Shown here: positions 5,485 through 30,940 of the stretch, piece by piece
How positions within the stretch are numbered: position 1 is the stretch's first letter
Layout: each line of letters begins with the position of its first letter
Assembly: GCA_028719205.1 (NCBI GenBank)
Contig: JAQUKH010000030.1
Location: 1-30,940, forward strand
From: a bacterium
GTDB lineage: Bacteria > JACRDZ01 > JAQUKH01
Direction: 5' to 3'
Length of the DNA: 30,940 nt
Position numbers and translations under genes: made by a program
Notes under the pieces: model-generated
The model's database searches: none
Told to the model about the DNA's origin: nothing
The model's input: the letters and a program-made list of their open reading frames with translations, nothing else

Positions 5485-8139
5485 TTATTTTCCAAAATTA
5501 GCCGCCATTGGTATTAAATCATTTCCATCAATTATTGAATTACCATCTAAATCCGCGAGAGCATTCCAGTTTGTATCTGTTGTGTCTGAACCGAATGCTC
5601 TTTTCAGAATGTATAAATCATGTCCATCTACCCGAGTAATTGAACCTGGAGAAAGAGTATCAATATTTCCCAGAAAGATTTTATCAAATGTTTGGGTTGG
5701 TTTAACACCAATACTATAAACACCTGTTCCTTTATTATTCCCATGTGAAACAGTCAAATAACATCTTTTACTTGATAAGGCGTGCCATATTATATTTGAC
5801 CCCCCGCCCTGGTTACCTGTTTTATCCTGCCCTAATACTGTGGCAGAGTCACTATCATACAGTTTAATAAGGGTTATCATGTCTTCAGGATATAACTTGG
5901 AAGTGTAGAAAGTATAACTATTCCCTCCTGTCGCGTCAAAATAAAAATAATCAACATCCCCGTCTGTTTCAAGCTTTCCATTGACTATCGTACTATCTAA
6001 AAGCCTTGTAGCGCCCGCAAAAGTACTGCCATAATCATCAGATATAACACCAGAAGTTTTCAGGGAAGCATTTGCAGAAAGGTTAAAATTTTCTGTTATT
6101 TTTACTTCAGGAATCGAAGATCCTGCTTTAATGGAAGTCCCATGTGGAGTCTCCACAGAAGTACCAGATGGATTAGAAACTTTAGCATTGAATGTGTAGT
6201 CACCATTTATATAATTGGCAATTATTCCCGTATATTTTCCGTCACCGGCTATGTAATCAGGACTTAAACCATCATCTTTTAAACCAATAGCTGATGTAGT
6301 AACAGCTCCTGTTGTATCTGTAACGGTAACAGTTGCCTCCACAGTAGCGCCCTTAATATTTAATCTTCTATAGGGAGTTGCTGTTATTAATATTGGCTCA
6401 GGATATTTTCCTCCATTTGCCTCCAGGTCCAATGAATAATCCGCATCTGTTTTAGCTTCTAATATAACCTCGATATTTGTAGTATCCGCGGATGATAACG
6501 AAAGTTCCATTTGCCATTCGCCTGAAGCTGGATCGGTTACTTCGTATATTATATAACCGGGTTCTTTAATATAATTAATATTTGAAAAAGCGCTCACGGT
6601 TGTAGAATCAACTAAAGCATTATTAGGCATTATCAGGCTTAATCCCATCTTTTGTGTATTTGGGAAAGCAGCACTAAATATTGCTTTTTTAGAGGAGGGG
6701 TCTACGATAACACTTGTGGTTTTAGATGGTTTTGAAAGATTTAGATTGTCTTTAACCCAAGCCGTAAGTTTATCATCAGAGGTCATGCTTTGAATATCAG
6801 AATAGATGGCATTAAGTGTGGCGGCTGATGACGCAAAATAGGATTTACCTCTCGTTCCCGTTGAGACAGCGCCTAATGTAGCCATATCTGCGTTTGCGCC
6901 TAATCCTATAGAGTAAACAGGGTATCCGGCACTTTGCAAATCAGTTAGAACCGCTCCTGTCGGTGATTCTCCGCTATTATGCAAGCCATCTGTCAGCAAA
7001 ACAATATACTTAAACGTTCCTTTGCGCGTACTGGCGTTTAAAATATTTAAACCGCTGCGTAATGCGGCTCCAATAGCTGTATTATTACCGGGAGCAATCG
7101 TGTCGATACTTGCTTTAAATCCGGCTTTTGTGGTTGAATCCAGCAGTGCAAGCGAAGCCAAAGTAGATACTACGTCATCATAAATCACTACAGCGGCGTA
7201 ATCTGTTTCTTTAAGCTTATCAAGATATGATTTCGCGCCGGATTTGGCATCCTGCATTTTAGTACTGGTATTAACACTGGTACTCTCGGCCATACTTCCT
7301 GAATGATCGATAATGATGACGGCCTCTGATCCTCCCATATATATTATTTCCACATCCGGAGCGCCGGCAGGTTGTGTCAGGACAGTCGGGTTTGCAAGCG
7401 CGTTGAGGTCAGGGAATTCATATCTTGGCAGTTGAGATGTCAGCCTTGGATTAAAAAGATCCCAAATCGGGTCTCGAACTAATGTCGCCCAGCATGAGGA
7501 TTCATTCATTCTCCATTGAGCGGTATTCTGGGTAGTACTGCTATAATCTGAATCAAGGCTGAACTGCTGATTAGTCCTGTGATCAGCCATTAAGGTTATT
7601 TTCCTGTTATCTGTGGAATGAGGCATATAGTCGATACTGTCATATGTTGTGGAAGTCGGTTTATATTCATCATAAAGGCCATAGGCGTAATGCCCTAATT
7701 CATGGGCCATCGCATGGCCTACTTCATTAAGATCATTGAGATTATCATCTACCCATATTCTTCCGGCATTATGGGTAAAACCATTGGGGGTAGCATTTGC
7801 TAAATCTCCATTGTTTTCAAATTGAATATCTGCCTTACCCCATTCACGTTCTTTATTAGTAATAGGATCAGGAGTATATACATAGAGAGTTTTTAAGAAA
7901 TGTTTGCCTTCTGTCATTTTATAAACATCGCTGGCAAAGAGTTTAAAAACAGTATCTAAGTGTGTTGTGTCAGTAGCGGTAGGTTTCCATTTCAGAGAGA
8001 TAACAAGATTAAAGGCTCCGGAGGAATCCCATTTTGTAAGGGAACTGCTGCCTGCGTATACAGTAGAGTAATTTAAAAATAGAATGAAAGCTATTAATAT
8101 ACCAAAAAAAATTCTATTTAGAATATATTTCATTTTCAT
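5485..8139 (-). CDS. secreted CLCA-like zincin metalloprotease with VWA domain and C-terminal dockerin
   Basis: 884 aa. Signal peptide. HAMAHELGHYAYGLYDEY fits the CLCA-type motif HExxHxxxGxxDE (codons at 7690-7704). MIDAS DHSGSM plus ...LLTDGLHNSG indicates a VWA domain (about 7294-7308). The C-terminus carries two dockerin-type Ca-binding repeats (VDGHDLYILKRAFG and DLDGNSIIDGNDLIPMAANFG) at about 5488-5680. Confidence 0.7.
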   Translation of the reverse strand: MKMKYILNRIFFGILIAFILFLNYSTVYAGSSSLTKWDSSGAFNLVISLKWKPTATDTTHLDTVFKLFASDVYKMTEGKHFLKTLYVYTPDPITNKEREWGKADIQFENNGDLANATPNGFTHNAGRIWVDDNLNDLNEVGHAMAHELGHYAYGLYDEYKPTSTTYDSIDYMPHSTDNRKITLMADHRTNQQFSLDSDYSSTTQNTAQWRMNESSCWATLVRDPIWDLFNPRLTSQLPRYEFPDLNALANPTVLTQPAGAPDVEIIYMGGSEAVIIIDHSGSMAESTSVNTSTKMQDAKSGAKSYLDKLKETDYAAVVIYDDVVSTLASLALLDSTTKAGFKASIDTIAPGNNTAIGAALRSGLNILNASTRKGTFKYIVLLTDGLHNSGESPTGAVLTDLQSAGYPVYSIGLGANADMATLGAVSTGTRGKSYFASSAATLNAIYSDIQSMTSDDKLTAWVKDNLNLSKPSKTTSVIVDPSSKKAIFSAAFPNTQKMGLSLIMPNNALVDSTTVSAFSNINYIKEPGYIIYEVTDPASGEWQMELSLSSADTTNIEVILEAKTDADYSLDLEANGGKYPEPILITATPYRRLNIKGATVEATVTVTDTTGAVTTSAIGLKDDGLSPDYIAGDGKYTGIIANYINGDYTFNAKVSNPSGTSVETPHGTSIKAGSSIPEVKITENFNLSANASLKTSGVISDDYGSTFAGATRLLDSTIVNGKLETDGDVDYFYFDATGGNSYTFYTSKLYPEDMITLIKLYDSDSATVLGQDKTGNQGGGSNIIWHALSSKRCYLTVSHGNNKGTGVYSIGVKPTQTFDKIFLGNIDTLSPGSITRVDGHDLYILKRAFGSDTTDTNWNALADLDGNSIIDGNDLIPMAANFGK

Positions 8140-8162
8140 ACCTCCTTTTAAATTATCTCACA

Positions 8163-8621
8163 TCATAATTTTTTAATAGTAACATCTATTTTTCTCACTG
8201 AATGAGATTCTTTATGTTCTTCCTTTCTGGGTTTACATTCAAATATATCCCCCTTGCTGAAAGGCGGAGCTTTAGCAACGGATTCATTGATTATCCACGA
8301 TGATAATTTTTTGATATAAAAAATATCATCTACACCTTCTACTTTTATGTAAATTTTCCCTTCCTGTATTTTTGTGATAACTCCTTCGCATCTTCTTTCT
8401 GTTTTTGTATCGGGGCCAAACTCAGGATCTTCTTCAATGGTTTCGTAGGTTTCAATACAAATTACGCTGTCGCCGATAACTAGATCTTCATTAGCCTGAT
8501 TTTTTTCAATACTGCTGTCGGCCGCTTTTTCATCACAAGATACTTTCATATTCAAAAAAACTATTCCTGTTATGAACAAAACGGCAAATAAAATAAAAAA
8601 TTTCTTATAAAAATGACACAT
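8163..8621 (-). CDS. small membrane-anchored/secreted hypothetical protein
   Basis: 152 aa. N-terminal hydrophobic segment FFILFAVLFITGIVFL, then a charged acidic domain. A possible promoter TTGACT-N16-TAGAAT lies just upstream on the minus strand (about 8640-8670). Confidence 0.5.
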   Translation of the reverse strand: MCHFYKKFFILFAVLFITGIVFLNMKVSCDEKAADSSIEKNQANEDLVIGDSVICIETYETIEEDPEFGPDTKTERRCEGVITKIQEGKIYIKVEGVDDIFYIKKLSSWIINESVAKAPPFSKGDIFECKPRKEEHKESHSVRKIDVTIKKL

Positions 8622-13612: not shown

Positions 13613-13867
13613 ATGGATTATAAAATATCTGCGAATGAACTAAAGACAAAAGGCGTATCGGCTATAAAAGAAGCTACTGCTAATTATCCGGAGGCAGTTA
13701 TAACGGTAAGGGGTAAGAGCCGTTATGTTGTTATTCCAATCGAATCATATAATCATTTGAGGGAATGTGAACTGGAAGCCGCTATTATTGAATCCAAGAA
13801 AGATATAAAAAATGGTAAATATGTCCAGGAAAGTGTTGAAGATCACATTAAAAGACTAGTGCGCTGA
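13613..13867 (+). CDS. Phd/YefM-family type II antitoxin
   Basis: 84 aa. ...ISANELKTKGVSAIKEATANYPEAVITVRGKSRYVVIPIESYNHL matches the Phd/YefM core (ITkrGkpvaVvvsveeYe). Confidence 0.7.
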   Translation: MDYKISANELKTKGVSAIKEATANYPEAVITVRGKSRYVVIPIESYNHLRECELEAAIIESKKDIKNGKYVQESVEDHIKRLVR

Positions 13868-13913
13868 TAAATTAATTTTGATGCGATAGAATGCCCAGAT
13901 TTGAGACAATTTC

Positions 13914-14086
13914 AACGAACGACGACGCAGGCGTATCCTCTGCGATACGTCAAGGAGGAGTGAGGCAGAAATTGGCCAAAGATGGGTATTCCCGAAGGGC
14001 AGAGGTTCTTTTGCCCCGCTTCTGCGTTGCTCGTCGCTAACATACCGCAGAGGGTATGCTATGCTCCTCGTGCCTTGAATCAGGCC
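13914..14086. repeat. GC-rich, highly structured about 170-bp insertion separating antitoxin and toxin genes
   Basis: Abrupt GC-rich island in AT-rich DNA. It contains two similar local hairpins: cgtatc-ctctgc-gatacg (13933-13950) and catacc-gcagag-ggtatg (14041-14058). There is long-range complementarity between cgacgacgcag (13920-13930) and ctgcgt-tgc-tcgtcg (14021-14035), plus ccc-gaa-ggg and ggccaaag...cttttgcc pairs. The 5' end tttcAACGAAcg resembles the TTTTAACGAA end of the attC-like family at 25-30 kb. Confidence 0.5.
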
Positions 14087-14133
14087 AAAATAATCTCTGC
14101 TATCACATCAAAATAAATTTAACAGAGCACAAC

Positions 14134-14412
14134 ATGGCTAAAATAATATATACCGAAAGTTATATTAAACGGGCAAAGAAATTTGTTAAGAAACATCCTG
14201 AGATTATTAATCAATACGCTAAAACATTAAAATTGCTTGAAATTAATCCGTTTCATCCGTCCCTCAGGCTTCATAAATTAAAAGGCAGGCTTTCCAATCT
14301 ACATTCCGTATCAATAAATATCTCATACCGCATATCGATTGATTTTATAATTGAAAATGATACAATTATACCAATTGATATCGGTTCCCATGATGAAGTA
14401 TATCAAGATTAA
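14134..14412 (+). CDS. RelE/StbE-family type II toxin (mRNA interferase)
   Basis: Start is placed at the internal ATG at 14134 (MAKIIYTESYIKRAKKFVKKHPEI...). ...HKLKGRLSNLHSVSINISYRISIDFIIENDTIIPIDIGSHDEVY matches the RelE/ParE core (L.G.l.g..s.ri..dyRiiy.i.d..i.ii.igHR.d.Y). The ORF-track start at 14056 would add 26 residues read from the GC-rich insert. Confidence 0.7.
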   Translation: MAKIIYTESYIKRAKKFVKKHPEIINQYAKTLKLLEINPFHPSLRLHKLKGRLSNLHSVSINISYRISIDFIIENDTIIPIDIGSHDEVYQD

Positions 14413-25040: not shown

Positions 25041-25097
25041 ATTATTTTTTACTACAGCCGCACTGTACTCGGCGCCGGTTACAACGTTTTGTTAATT
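25041..25097 (-). repeat. degenerate/relic attC-like site (R'' AATTAAC overlapping the stop codon; the L arm is degenerate and no R' end is present)
   Basis: The minus strand reads attaacaaaacgttgtaaccggcgccgagtacagtgcggctg. This aligns with the R''-proximal half of the 28.4-28.6 kb site (AACAAg...CCGaCGCCGAGTACgGcGCGGCTG). The outer stem is broken (cagccg vs ccggtt) and no GTTRRRY end precedes the next start codon. Confidence 0.45.
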
Positions 25098-25538: not shown

Positions 25539-25596
25539 TTCTAACGCCAAAGCTCACTGGCGGCGTACTCGCCGTCCAGTGAAGCGCCAGTTAGGC
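25539..25596 (-). repeat. integron attC-like recombination site (58 bp)
   Basis: The minus strand reads R'' GCCTAAC (plus 25590-25596), 11 nt after the brnA stop, and ends with R' GTTAGAA (plus 25539-25545). The centre is cactgg-cggcg-tact-cgccg-T-ccagtg with a single bulged T on the plus (bottom) strand. Confidence 0.7.
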
Positions 25597-26165: not shown

Positions 26166-26225
26166 GTCTAACGCTAAAAAATCAGGCGTGGCTATAGGCC
26201 ATCGCCTGCATTGCCCTTGTTAAAA
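26166..26225 (-). repeat. integron attC-like recombination site (60 bp)
   Basis: The minus strand reads R'' TTTTAAC (plus 26219-26225), 11 nt after the DUF2442 stop, and R' GTTAGAC (plus 26166-26172). The centre is caggcg-tggc-tatag-gcca-T-cgcctg with a bulged T. Confidence 0.7.
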
Positions 26226-26847: not shown

Positions 26848-26906
26848 TTTTAACGAATAAATCAGCGGTGCCGCTATGCGGTATCCGCTGCATGATGTTG
26901 TTAAAA
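26848..26906 (-). repeat. integron attC-like recombination site (59 bp)
   Basis: R'' TTTTAAC (plus 26900-26906) and R' GTTAAAA (plus 26848-26854). The centre is cagcgg-tgccg-ctatg-cggta-T-ccgctg with one inner-stem mismatch and a bulged T. The site starts 90 nt after the stop of the upstream ORF. Confidence 0.65.
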
Positions 26907-27832: not shown

Positions 27833-27889
27833 TTTTAACATTTGAGCTCAGGCGTGCCGTTAGGCGTCGCTTGAAGCGATTCGTTAAAA
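27833..27889 (-). repeat. integron attC-like recombination site (57 bp, slightly degenerate)
   Basis: R'' TTTTAAC (plus 27883-27889) and R' GTTAAAA (plus 27833-27839). The centre is caggcg-tgcc-gtta-ggcg-T-cgcttg with two stem mismatches. The bulged T is retained. Confidence 0.6.
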
Positions 27890-27956: not shown

Positions 27957-28385
27957 TTAGTTTCTTCCCATTTCAATTAGAAGAAATATATTCCCTTCTT
28001 TATCTTCTACATATCTCCAAAATGGCGATTTGAAATGAATTGAGGCCGCAACTACTTCTTGTTGCTTATATCCTTCAGCACTTGCTCGAACAATAAATTG
28101 TCTTTCTCCTATGTCTGGACATTTACTTAAGAAGAATTTCCATGGGATTCTGAATTTACCTTTTTTATCAATTTTAAAAGTATATGTTTTTGTATTTTCC
28201 TTAACAAGAAATCCTTTTTCATGGATTTCTAAAACAATTTTAGCATCAATTATAGGTTCGTTATTATCTTTACTTACAATTTGCCCATAAATTGTTTTGG
28301 TAAAATTTTGTTCACAACCAGATATAGAGAAAACAATTATAAAAAATATTAATAATTGTAAATAGATACTAATTTTATTATTCAT
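27957..28385 (-). CDS. cassette-encoded lipoprotein, hypothetical
   Basis: Start is placed at ATG 28385 (MNNKISIYLQLLIFFIIVFSISGC, a lipobox), 11 nt after attC R' GTTAAAT. The ORF-track start at 28460 would read 25 extra residues out of the attC-like element. Confidence 0.55.
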   Translation of the reverse strand: MNNKISIYLQLLIFFIIVFSISGCEQNFTKTIYGQIVSKDNNEPIIDAKIVLEIHEKGFLVKENTKTYTFKIDKKGKFRIPWKFFLSKCPDIGERQFIVRASAEGYKQQEVVAASIHFKSPFWRYVEDKEGNIFLLIEMGRN

Positions 28386-28396
28386 AGATATTTTCA

Positions 28397-28622
28397 ATTT
28401 AACAGCGAGTTGAGCGAAATTGAACTGGACTGGCATGCTTGCATGCCAAGACCAGGGCAATTTGCGCTCGAACGATTTGTTCGACCGCGCGAATCAGCGC
28501 GCGGTCGGACTAATCGGGCGAGTGCGTACGCGCAACTCGCTGTTCGGGCGCGCGCAGCGCGGCCGAACGCCCGAAACTCAGCCGCGCCGTACTCGGCGTC
28601 GGCTGGAGTGCACTTGTTAAAA
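28397..28622 (-). repeat. atypical long (226 bp) attC-like site with about 165-bp GC-rich structured insert
   Basis: Canonical ends: R'' TTTTAAC (plus 28616-28622) and R' GTTAAAT (plus 28397-28403). The R''-proximal arm is cagccg-cgccg-tact-cggcg-T-cggctg, a perfect stem with a bulged T. Between the arms lies very GC-rich sequence with perfect hairpins: gaccgcgcg-aatcag-cgcgcggtc, ggcatgc-tt-gcatgcc, and cgggcg...cgcccg. Confidence 0.6.
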
Positions 28623-28659
28623 TCTTAAATTGTAAAAGTATCTCACAAATTTAAAGAGC

Positions 28660-28878
28660 CTAGATATTTTTTAGTATTTCTTCAGCAGAATAAAAATGAG
28701 CTTTTTTATTTTTTTCTTTTATTTCAAATGTTTCAATCTCTTTCCTGTCTACCAGATTTTCGTACATCTCTATCATTGATTTCTTTAACAGTTTTGAACG
28801 GTCTTCGTCGTAATAAGTTTCTAATTTTTTTAAAACTTTTTCTTCATATGGATTAAATCTTACAGATATTACAGCCAT
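28660..28878 (-). CDS. ribbon-helix-helix antitoxin (DUF6290-like)
   Basis: 72 aa. MAVISVRFNPYEEKVLKKLETYYDEDRSKLLKKSMIEMYENLVD matches the DUF6290/RHH pattern (M.tisiRlneeEeklik.yA...g.s.Sefir.a.le.iEd). It overlaps the 3' end of the RelE-like gene by 10 nt. Confidence 0.6.
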   Translation of the reverse strand: MAVISVRFNPYEEKVLKKLETYYDEDRSKLLKKSMIEMYENLVDRKEIETFEIKEKNKKAHFYSAEEILKNI

Positions 28879-29138
28879 TGTTTATAAACCTCCTCTCGTT
28901 TTGCTATACTGATAATGAAGTAATCCTCATTTTCAATGTAGAATATCGCTCTGAACTTGTTTTTTCTCATTCTATAATATGTCCGTGCTTCATTTGATTT
29001 TAATCGCTTTATATCAAATAAGTTCAGATCTTTTGTTGTTTCCAAGGCAATAAATGCGTGATGAAATAATTGAAAAACCTCTTTAGGTATTTTTCCTTTC
29101 TTTAAATTCCGTAATACTTCATCTTCGTATTTAATCAT
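28869..29138 (-). CDS. RelE/ParE-family type II toxin
   Basis: 89 aa. ...IKRLKSNEARTYYRMRKNKFRAIFYIENEDYFIISIAKREEVYK matches the RelE core (l.g...g.yelRvg.yRiiY.i.d....il.i.hRkdvY). The toxin precedes its antitoxin, a higBA-like order. Confidence 0.7.
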   Translation of the reverse strand: MIKYEDEVLRNLKKGKIPKEVFQLFHHAFIALETTKDLNLFDIKRLKSNEARTYYRMRKNKFRAIFYIENEDYFIISIAKREEVYKQWL

Positions 29139-29219: not shown

Positions 29220-29279
29220 TTTTAACGTTGAAAACTCAGGCGCCGCCATAGGCGGTCGCCTGAAGTGCCCTTGTTAAAA
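29220..29279 (-). repeat. integron attC-like recombination site (60 bp)
   Basis: R'' TTTTAAC (plus 29273-29279), 2 nt after the ParE-like stop, and R' GTTAAAA (plus 29220-29226). The centre is caggcg-ccgcc-ata-ggcgg-T-cgcctg, perfect stems with a bulged T. Confidence 0.7.
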
Positions 29280-29868: not shown

Positions 29869-29927
29869 TTTTAACGCCGGAAATCACTGGCGGGCTACTG
29901 CCCGTCCAGTGCATTGAAATGTTGGGA
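29869..29927 (-). repeat. integron attC-like recombination site (59 bp)
   Basis: R'' TCCCAAC (plus 29921-29927), 8 nt after the ParE stop, and R' GTTAAAA (plus 29869-29875). The centre is cactgg-cgggc-tact-gcccg-T-ccagtg. It has the same outer stem as the 25.5 kb site but a compensatorily changed inner stem (cgggc/gcccg vs cggcg/cgccg). Confidence 0.7.
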
Positions 29928-30839: not shown

Positions 30840-30940
30840 TGCAGCTTTTGTTCAGAACCTTCGCCGTATGCTTCGGCATTTATTATCACCTGATGTTTTT
30901 TATCAGCCACCGCTATTCCATTATAGCCTTGTATTACTCC

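Follow-up and report, generated by a model that had tools for sequence, protein, structure and literature searches.

The stretch at positions 28397-28622 of the window, that is, of the whole 30,940-nt sequence analyzed here, had been described in the original prediction as a single integron recombination site (attC) expanded to 226 bp by a GC-rich insert. The results presented below make it highly probable that this stretch is composed of an ordinary 61-bp attC and a 165-bp gene-less cassette consisting only of hairpins, which is seated exactly at the crossover point of the attC and is presumably moved by the integron integrase (IntI). The 165-bp unit, hereafter called the module, belongs to a family of cargo-free attC-like mini-cassettes. 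Gene-less cassettes are already known from integrons, but no description of this family was found in the literature on gene-less or empty cassettes and on the integrons of Syntrophales and Desulfobacterota, our coverage of which was incomplete.

Boundaries of the module and of the resident attC

The plus strand of the window was assigned as the recombinogenic bottom strand on the basis of the extra A on the arm opposite AAC, a criterion described for attC sites (PMC5027507), and the assignment agrees with the location of the cassette genes on the minus strand. The features described below lie on the plus strand unless stated otherwise. The stretch begins with the R-box heptamer TTTTAAC (28397-28403), in which the crossover falls between A28402 and C28403. 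It is followed by the module in its long AB form (28404-28568, or C28403 to A28567 in strict crossover terms), which matched the family profile with 162.8 bits (E 1e-48) and was the sole copy found in the window by nhmmer with that profile. The ordinary attC of a toxin-antitoxin cassette, which lies upstream in the top-strand sense, occupies positions 28562-28622. Both ends of the module are located at AA↓C, where the arrow marks the crossover: TTTTAA↓C at 28402/28403 and GGCCGAA↓C at 28567/28568. AA↓C of the bottom strand corresponds to G↓TT of the top strand, and AA↓C is the cleavage rule established for attC sites (PMC5027507).

The site at 28562-28622 was evaluated with model R1, a covariance model of 24 ordinary attCs (5 from the window and 19 from related arrays), from the training of which this site was left out. 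It was matched over its full length with 49.4 bits (E 1e-9), and the other six attCs of the window scored 37.9-56.6 bits on the plus strand only, scores on the minus strand being at most 13 bits. When read on the minus strand from 28622 to 28562, the site stayed in register with the neighbouring ordinary attCs through to its R' box, G↓TTCGGC. Its original R box, TTTTAA, has been swapped for the module-derived GCCGAA, and the heptamer at 28397-28403 is the head that this attC, now starting at 28562, possessed before the insertion. Deletion of 28404-28568 in silico brought TTTTAAC directly to GCCCGAAACTCAG and yielded a normal local attC. Regarding the canonical ends proposed earlier, TTTTAAC is present, whereas the right end reads GTTAAAA (28616-28622) instead of GTTAAAT, the T being the next base. 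The suggestion of a nested element or of a fusion of two attCs was partly borne out: a separate structured unit does lie beside a complete attC, but the interior of the attC is not expanded.

The GC-rich block is real. The G+C content was 0.625-0.63 over 28400-28600 and approximately 0.21-0.33 on either side, and the module itself had 61.8% G+C compared with 29.5% in 2 kb of flank. The smaller structures reported within the block were also recovered, namely the hairpin GACCGCGCG-AATCAG-CGCGCGGTC, the palindrome GGCATGC-TT-GCATGCC (28432-28447), the CGGGCG...CGCCCG pair, and the long-range complementarity between AGCGAGTTG and CAACTCGCT. Secondary-structure prediction, which had been recommended as a check, supported a strong fold that is also backed by covariation in the family: when folded as single-stranded DNA (ssDNA), the plus strand of 28390-28630 reached -88.4 kcal/mol against a shuffle mean of -49.8 (z = -11.1; 0 of 200 shuffles as good), and the minus strand reached -77.6 kcal/mol.

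Two Arg/Ala-rich plus-strand open reading frames (ORFs), at 28410-28628 (72 aa) and 28420-28620, are products of the GC-rich module. As had been anticipated for the former, they are spurious, since homologous elements are "translated" in three frames on both strands and the copies differ by 1-nt indels. The module was also found to lack coding capacity when its reading frames were searched as protein. The next cassette carries a lipoprotein gene (27957-28385, minus strand), for which a false N-terminal extension had been suspected; indeed, the real start is the ATG at 28385, from which a signal peptide (MNNKISIYLQLLIFFIIVFSISGC) is obtained, and the TTG start at 28460 is an artefactual extension into the module.

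Related copies at attC and attI junctions

Relatives of the module were retrieved by concatenating the three stop-free frames of the block and querying them as a "protein," which revealed mis-called ORFs over homologous DNA. This search returned 15 spurious gene products with 59-89% identity (E 1.7e-19 to 5e-2). The matches fell in three frames on both strands; thus, the conservation is at the DNA level and not at the protein level. The contigs of these products (L013-L015; fetched loci are designated by L numbers) contained 10 module copies. The invariant 24-mer of one of the module hairpins, hairpin B (GCGCGAATCAGCGCGCGGTCGGAC), was located at 30 real loci in genome bins of Syntrophus, Syntrophales, Syntrophaceae, "Deltaproteobacteria," "Proteobacteria," Hydrogenedentota, and Omnitrophota, with matches on at least 10 contigs of a single bin. 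The pattern of another, hairpin C, was detected at 120 or more metagenome loci from sediment, groundwater, activated sludge, and digesters. The resulting catalogue included at least 186 copies in 143 fetched loci. With so many related copies and a covarying structure, the insert is not the unique noise without homologues that the original prediction had considered as the opposite outcome. In several loci (L023, L035, L038, L042, and others), the contigs begin or end inside the module, which suggests that this repeat breaks short-read assemblies of cassette arrays and that copy numbers are under-counted.

BLASTN of the 226 bp against plasmids gave no match, and the 16-mer of the hairpin-A apex gave only chance matches in viral contigs. 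The 22-mer of the same apex was absent from the genome and metagenome collections, which therefore contain no near-identical copies. The closest relatives of the window module were the copies in L015, L145, and L086 (88-90% identity), while the remainder of the window array had no DNA similarity to any fetched locus. The ordinary attCs of the window belong to the same sequence family as those of the Syntrophales-type arrays (AAC-G..A-rich..TCA[G/C]C[G/C]G ... C[C/G]G[C/G]TG.A ... TTGTTA), although the window host is far more AT-rich. The GTTCGG/CCGAAC box of the module is common in ordinary cassettes of the Syntrophales-type arrays and foreign to the TTTTAAC/GTTAAAA boxes of the window. The foreign R box, together with the high identity of the module in an otherwise dissimilar array, indicated that the window copy was imported from another cassette pool. 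The G+C content of the host flanks varied from 29% to 59% among the copies; thus, the high G+C content of the module is intrinsic to its fold.

Analysis of the flanks demonstrated that the copies are bounded by integron crossover points. On the left, AAC preceded 136-139 of the 139 copies with a definable left end, and the logo of this flank was [G/A][C/T][C/A][T/C]AAC (GCCTAAC-like, RYYYAAC). On the right, 113 copies ended at an attC remainder under a strict pattern, 41 at an attI-like AT-rich flank, and 29 at other sequences; on inspection, most of the latter proved to be attI variants or remainders of attCs with boxes of the GTTCG type, and a few were ambiguous. Approximately one copy in five is located at attI. 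The attI-like flank leads into an integrase ORF: the two ORFs scanned, in L025 and L026, matched TIGR02249 with 425.8 and 423.4 bits (cut-off 265) and start 253 and 248 nt downstream of the hairpin-B 24-mer, and L029 encodes a similar ORF. After ten modules, the IntI N-terminus was found at a distance of 165-310 nt, in the expected divergent arrangement.

Junctions were also found in both the filled and the empty state. The same attC or attI was preceded by the module (...CCGAAC↓) in one locus and by an ordinary cassette end (...YTAAC↓) in another in the pairs L086/L099, L089/L016, L134/L014, L154/L014, and L135/L101, and the same downstream cassette occurred with and without the module in L014/L154. 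Since such pairs exist on both sides, the module is separate from both of its neighbours. Its orientation is fixed: the plus strand of the module is opposite to the cassette genes in the window, L013, L014, and L015, and the orientation relative to intI was the same in 10 of 10 cases. The load can be considerable, with up to six copies per 13 kb; in L014, a copy was present at six of approximately 12 attC junctions.

The fold of the module was reconstructed with RNAalifold from 20 distinct copies, which gave 60 pairs with 98.1% of the cells paired. Compensatory changes were observed in 14 pairs (48 cells), a value that was reached in 0 of 500 shuffles, and slid controls were paired at only 29-40%. 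When 48 distinct copies were used, compensatory types were present in 15 of the 60 pairs. The long form (161-166 nt) has the order AAC↓GGCGAGTTGAGCG (5' arm of helix P1), hairpins A and B, GCGCAACTCGCC (3' arm of P1), and hairpin C (GTTCGGNCGCGC-GCA-GCGCGNCCGAAC↓). In the window, the 5' arm of P1, AGCGAGTTGAGCG (28404-28416), pairs with 28529-28541. P1 comprises 11 pairs that were 99.5% paired across the copies; at pair 8/146, 19 copies have G-C, whereas the window copy has A-T. At this arm, AAC, 5 nt, and GTTGAGC are laid out in a manner resembling R box, spacer, and L box. The arm AAC-GGCGA-GTTGAGC is spaced as these three elements, in a manner that we take to be similar to that of attC_aadA7.

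Hairpin A (47 nt, 28417-28463) has the apex GGCATGCTTGCATGCC and a conserved CTGG...CCAAG stem with a bulged A that resembles the local L boxes. It contains 12 covarying pairs, and its apex varied among GGCATGCTTGCATGCC, GCCGAGCTTGCTCGG, and GGCGAGTTTACTCGCC across the copies. Hairpin B (62 nt, 28464-28525) has the apex GTTCGACCGCGCG-AATCAG-CGCGCGGTCGGAC and a near-invariant sequence; G·T pairs are conserved at alignment columns 86/113 and 89/110, where 18-19 of the 20 copies have them. According to the fold and the alignment, it is followed by the linker GTA with the 3' arm of P1, CGCGCAACTCGCT (28526-28541), and by hairpin C, GTTCGGGCGCGC-GCA-GCGCGGCCGAAC (28542-28568). We read hairpin C as the R'' of the module (GTTCGGGC), an 11-nt "cargo," and an R' box, GGCCGAA↓C, with which the resident attC now begins. 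A switch from T-A to A-T in this hairpin (GTTCGG/CCGAAC vs GTACGG/CCGTAC) was observed in 8 of 20 and 14 of 48 copies; accordingly, the R box is GNCCGAAC/GTTCGGNC in 34 of the 48 copies and a covarying GTAC/GTAC in the other 14. Its fourth position is G and not the Y of RYYYAAC, and GCCGAAC/GTTCGGC boxes are common in ordinary attCs of the same arrays.

Shorter forms of the module were found as well: B-only (104-106 nt), A-only (54-101 nt), a recurrent 52-nt form, and one of 42 nt. Hairpin C was found at the junction in every form, and all of them end in ...CCG(A/T)AC↓. Several truncated forms, such as the B-only one, are joined at internal AAC triplets, and in L041 GCGCAAC↓ is fused directly to an attC; others, including the recurrent 52-nt form, are joined elsewhere. 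The 52-nt form has extra unpaired bases (GCAA vs T) on the correct arm.

The pairing data also revealed which strand is under selection. G·T cells, which pair on the plus strand only, outnumbered A·C cells, which pair on the minus strand only, by 59 to 4 in the 20 copies and by 139 to 8 in the 48 copies. The fold of the plus strand was more stable in all 48 copies (-58.2 vs -47.0 kcal/mol), and this strand is purine-rich (GC skew +0.10, AT skew +0.06). Better folding, G·T enrichment, and purine richness have been reported for the bottom strands of attC sites (PMC5027507). The selected strand is antisense to the cassette genes, which argues for an ssDNA substrate and not for a sense RNA.

Proposed mobility and competing explanations

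We propose that the module acts as one large attC-like fold of the bottom strand that carries no gene. In this fold, the R box GNCCGAAC would be paired with GTTCGGNC and followed by a spacer of 5 nt with all positions paired, an L-box-like stem (GTTGAGCG/CGCGCAAC) interrupted by an A·G mismatch, and a "terminal structure" elaborated into hairpins A and B; the putative cargo would be the 11 nt GCGCGCAGCGC. As a cassette, the module would consist of the leading C, the site GGCGAG...CTCGCC with GTTCGGNC as its own R'', the 11 nt, and GNCCGAA. Circularisation would join GNCCGAA to the leading C and complete the R' box, while after integration hairpin C would be formed by both halves of the R box together with the 11 nt. 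The integrase would insert the module at the AA↓C crossover of a resident attC, on the bottom strand (plus strand of the window). The module would be excised when its own site recombines with the adjacent attC, and would probably leave as a small single-stranded circle of rod-like shape (165 nt), whose predicted junction joins ...GCGCGGCCGAA to CAGCGAGTTGAGCG; re-entry would be possible at attI or another attC. Copies would accumulate because integron junctions are resolved by replication, so that one daughter chromosome retains the copy. It is the site specificity that points to IntI as the enzyme of both steps.

The module shares with attC sites a paired R box (AAC/GTT in most copies), the AA↓C crossover, a variable terminal structure, and, by published criteria, bottom-strand folding, G·T enrichment, and purine skew (PMC5027507). 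Unlike attC sites, including the long ones such as the Vibrio cholerae repeats (VCR, ~130 bp) with which it was compared, it has no unpaired spacer and, in the long form, no extrahelical bases; its terminal structure is branched into two conserved hairpins, and its sequence is highly conserved across hosts. Gene-less cassettes are known from Vibrio superintegrons and from Treponema and other oral integrons (PMC11014356, PMC6557892). As in those cassettes, the module is bounded by crossover points, contains no gene, and lies between ordinary cassettes in a fixed orientation. The published Vibrio cassettes were chosen for the lack of annotation and of any ORF of at least 210 bp, and most of them act as promoters (PMC11014356). 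In contrast, the members of the module family are 42-166 bp long, form an almost pure recombination-site-like fold in which no promoter-like site was found, are 88-90% identical between the window copy and its closest relatives in very different hosts, and occur in multiple copies per array.

Several observations weigh against an integrase-borne cassette. Model R1 gave the module only 16.9 bits (E 0.08, at 28397-28485) and long copies in general 13-21 bits (13.6-21.4 outside the window), compared with 37.9-63.5 bits for ordinary attCs, and these weak matches use hairpin A and not P1 as a pseudo-L box. Canonical attCs have an unpaired central spacer and extrahelical bases; in the module, by contrast, each pair of the spacer GGCGA/TCGCC is formed in 19-20 of 20 copies, and nothing beyond a 1x1 A·G mismatch stands in for the extrahelical bases in the long form. 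In about 30% of the copies, the module's own R box is GTA/TAC and not the conserved GTT/AAC. Hairpin B is conserved in sequence with zero compensatory changes, a pattern that fits recent spread or sequence-specific recognition by some other factor. The window contains no integrase gene, the array running off its end at 30940. Finally, module-module tandems, a proxy for circle junctions, were absent among the 186 copies, though up to half of the junctions of an array are filled, and a freely inserting cassette might be expected to give some. Nor is the stretch a simple tandem of two ordinary attCs, the alternative considered earlier: the second unit is a conserved multi-hairpin cargo-free element with low R1 scores.

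Among the other explanations, the one that survives best, although we regard it as improbable, is that the cassette carries a gene for a small structured RNA or a regulatory element acting as RNA, perhaps a distant relative of Clostridiales-1 RNA (RF01699); a structured RNA inside the site had also been suggested in the original prediction. The Rfam search of the window gave no match at the gathering threshold. Below it, RF01699 matched 28404-28541 (plus strand) over the full-length model with 39.0 bits (E 2.5e-7) and the L015 copy with 35.3 bits, both under the gathering score of 48. As in Clostridiales-1 RNA (PMC2864571), the module is a multi-stem element of ~140-165 nt with a terminal helix, a first hairpin of 47 nt with a GCUUGC apex, and many copies per genome. 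In addition, the covariation backs a conserved fold, G·U pairs would suit an RNA as well, and gene-less cassettes have been proposed as sources of small RNAs (PMC11014356). However, the match is not family-wide, as none was obtained for the L046 copy, in which the hairpin-A apex is altered by compensatory changes, or for the whole of L013-L015. The alignment was poor in its second half, where P4 is mostly deleted and P3 has low posterior probability, and the published RF01699 alignment contains GCAUGC low-complexity rows that would reward the apex of the window copy. The conserved P3 (GAGCA...GAAGC...GCGA) and P4 (GGAUUGCGGGAG...GCAAUCC) motifs are absent from the module, and the hosts differ, being gut Clostridiales for the RNA and anaerobic sediment and sludge taxa for the module. 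Moreover, selection acts on the strand that is antisense both to the cassette genes and to transcription from Pc, and no sigma-70-like, promoter-like, or terminator-like site was found in or beside the module, with the reservation that promoters of gene-less cassettes are not reliably predictable in silico (PMC11014356). The assignment to Clostridiales-1 was therefore rejected for its sub-threshold score, its dependence on the apex variant, and the missing P3 and P4 motifs, and we treat the resemblance as coincidental. A retron RNA was likewise dropped because no reverse transcriptase is encoded nearby.

A miniature non-autonomous element that targets the AAC of attC and is moved by another enzyme, such as an HUH transposase of the IS200/IS605 type or one of the IS1111-attC type, appears very unlikely. 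Hairpin ends, fixed-target insertion without duplication, and fixed orientation are traits of IS200/IS605-derived elements, and the module has hairpin ends, is inserted 3' of a fixed short sequence without target duplication in a fixed orientation, and has many copies per genome. Targeting of attC is documented for IS1111-attC elements and group IIC-attC introns, which, like the module, are found in integron sites on the bottom strand in one orientation (PMC3001079). They are, however, 1.3-2 kb long, code for an enzyme of their own, and enter attC close to its 5' end (PMC3001079), whereas the module (42-166 bp) encodes nothing and lies at the integrase crossover at the 3' end. Nearly all of the 186 copies are at the integrase crossover of attC or attI, for which a target of 3-4 nt would be too unspecific; several deletion variants also break at AAC, and no transposase was present among the called neighbours in L013-L015. 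A group II intron remnant was rejected because the block is too short and has no domain-V-like hairpin. Repetitive extragenic palindromes and bacterial interspersed mosaic elements (REP/BIME) and miniature inverted-repeat transposable elements (MITEs) are also short, GC-rich relative to the host, hairpin-forming, multi-copy, and intergenic, but the module differs from them in being confined to integron crossovers, bounded by AA↓C, and devoid of terminal inverted repeats with target duplications.

We attach equally little probability to a dead remnant, that is, an immobile and functionless attC left after a cassette lost its gene, with two attCs fused by deletion. The formal cassette layout with an 11-nt cargo would be consistent with such an origin, and the deletion derivatives show that segments are lost. 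On the other hand, at least 186 copies share the 11-nt centre in unrelated contexts and hosts, with up to six per array, and independent deletions could not yield this pattern; at most, the founder of the family arose in this way. Insertion polymorphism at identical sites, with empty sites that contradict purely vertical inheritance, and the 88-90% identity of the closest relatives to the window copy, in arrays that otherwise share no DNA similarity, argue in the same direction. The idea of a single attC whose variable terminal structure has grown to 226 bp is scarcely credible: the outer TTTTAAC...GTTAAAA can pair, the whole stretch folds as one multibranch structure, and long attCs with complex terminal structures are known, for example the 133-bp VCR2 (PMC5027507), but the insert is not apical and instead separates the R-box AAC from the spacer of an otherwise complete attC, the same insert accompanies dozens of unrelated attCs and attI, and the filled and empty versions of the same sites already contradict it.

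An integron cassette is usually viewed as a gene with its recombination site, and gene-less cassettes have mainly been explained as promoters. The module family is conserved, amounts to little more than a recombination-site-like fold, is plentiful in the anaerobic communities of sediment, groundwater, sludge, and digesters, and often forms the first cassette beside the integrase gene. Its presence in an unrelated AT-rich genome indicates that cassettes cross between very different cassette pools. As to why the family is so abundant, our leading guess, which we hold as evenly balanced against the rest, is that the module spreads selfishly as a cassette without cargo; otherwise it may serve as a spacer, attenuate cassette expression, or provide an additional recombination hotspot. 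If the integrase does move it, the module would set a minimum for attC, at about 50 nt and, in the long form, without an unpaired spacer or extrahelical bases, and would make it possible to study selfish behaviour within integrons in a naturally occurring example. It would also be an annotation nuisance that results in broken metagenome assemblies, false Arg/Ala-rich ORFs in several frames, and falsely extended neighbours.

A bolder and somewhat doubtful idea is that modules are minimal self-propagating cargo-free integron parasites that cross arrays and phyla by means of the host integrase and that, by landing beside genes, could seed new cassettes. The parasite part is compatible with all of the evidence, including six copies per 13 kb, the share of about one-fifth at attI, the 88-90% identity, and the forms of 42-52 nt. 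The cassette-origin part has no direct support, since no clear copy outside an integron was seen among the catalogued copies; if true, it would bear on the unsolved question of where cassettes come from.

The surrounding array and other hairpin elements

The region of 24-31 kb is an integron-type cassette array that stops close to gmk (24 kb) on one side and extends beyond the window end on the other. Its small genes are all on the minus strand, and their products include BrnT/BrnA, DUF4160/DUF2442, ParE-type, and RelE-like toxin-antitoxin pairs, a PNPOx-like protein, and the lipoprotein. The cassette that owns the ordinary attC beside the module contains two genes (28660-29138, minus strand), namely a DUF6290 antitoxin-like ORF (28660-28878) and an 89-aa RelE-like ORF (28869-29138). 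The sites of the array are 55-60 bp long and follow the pattern TYTAAC-(7-9 nt)-CTCAGGCG-(hairpin)-CGCCTGAAG-(6-8 nt)-GTTRRR; the other ordinary attCs are located on the plus (bottom) strand at 25539-25596, 26166-26225, 26848-26906, 27833-27889, 29220-29279, and 29869-29927.

At the array end near gmk, a degenerate relic of an ordinary attC (25041-25096, plus strand) has kept the central CAGCCGCACTGTACTCGGCGCCGG hairpin and the GTTAAT end and has lost the AAC-side arm; it gave no match to model R1 at E<=10. This relic was proposed earlier to align with half of the 226-bp element. It does match 28579-28602 (88%), but that part belongs to the ordinary attC and not to the insert. The view that the long form is ancestral to the relic is not supported: the relic resembles an ordinary attC only and is unrelated to the module, and the module profile finds no other copy in the window.

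A second GC-richer segment, of ~270 nt (13868-14135), had been suggested for comparison and turned out to be unrelated in the search with the module profile; it had no Rfam match even at E<=1. It splits an apparent toxin-antitoxin operon, between a Phd/YefM-like ORF (13613-13867) and a YafQ/RelE-like ORF (14056-14412) whose Pfam match starts only at residue 29, and is bounded by the imperfect inverted repeat TTTTGATGCGATAG ... CTATCACATCAAAA. This segment may be a small insertion of another kind.

In L014, a group II intron (8132-8442, minus strand; RF02001 127.6 bits, RF01998 45.3 bits), apparently with no room for an ORF, lies beside the module copy at 7724-7893 and abuts the altered hairpin C of a module copy. 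It is on the cassette-sense strand, in contrast to the published attC-targeting group IIC introns, which are on the bottom strand (PMC3001079).

Other short GC-rich hairpins were observed at the same type of junction beside attC or attI, at L034 ~2942, in the left flank of L016, in the right flank of L089, in L025/L124, and at L072 ~1564. Examples are GATGGCGCGGCGCGAAGCGTCCGCGCCATC, GTTGCCGTCGCGCGCAGCGCGGCGGCAAC, and GTTCCCGAAGCGCGCAGCGCTTCGGGAAC, and some share the GCGCGCAGCGC centre, which suggests that a broader class of hairpin mini-units exists at integron junctions.

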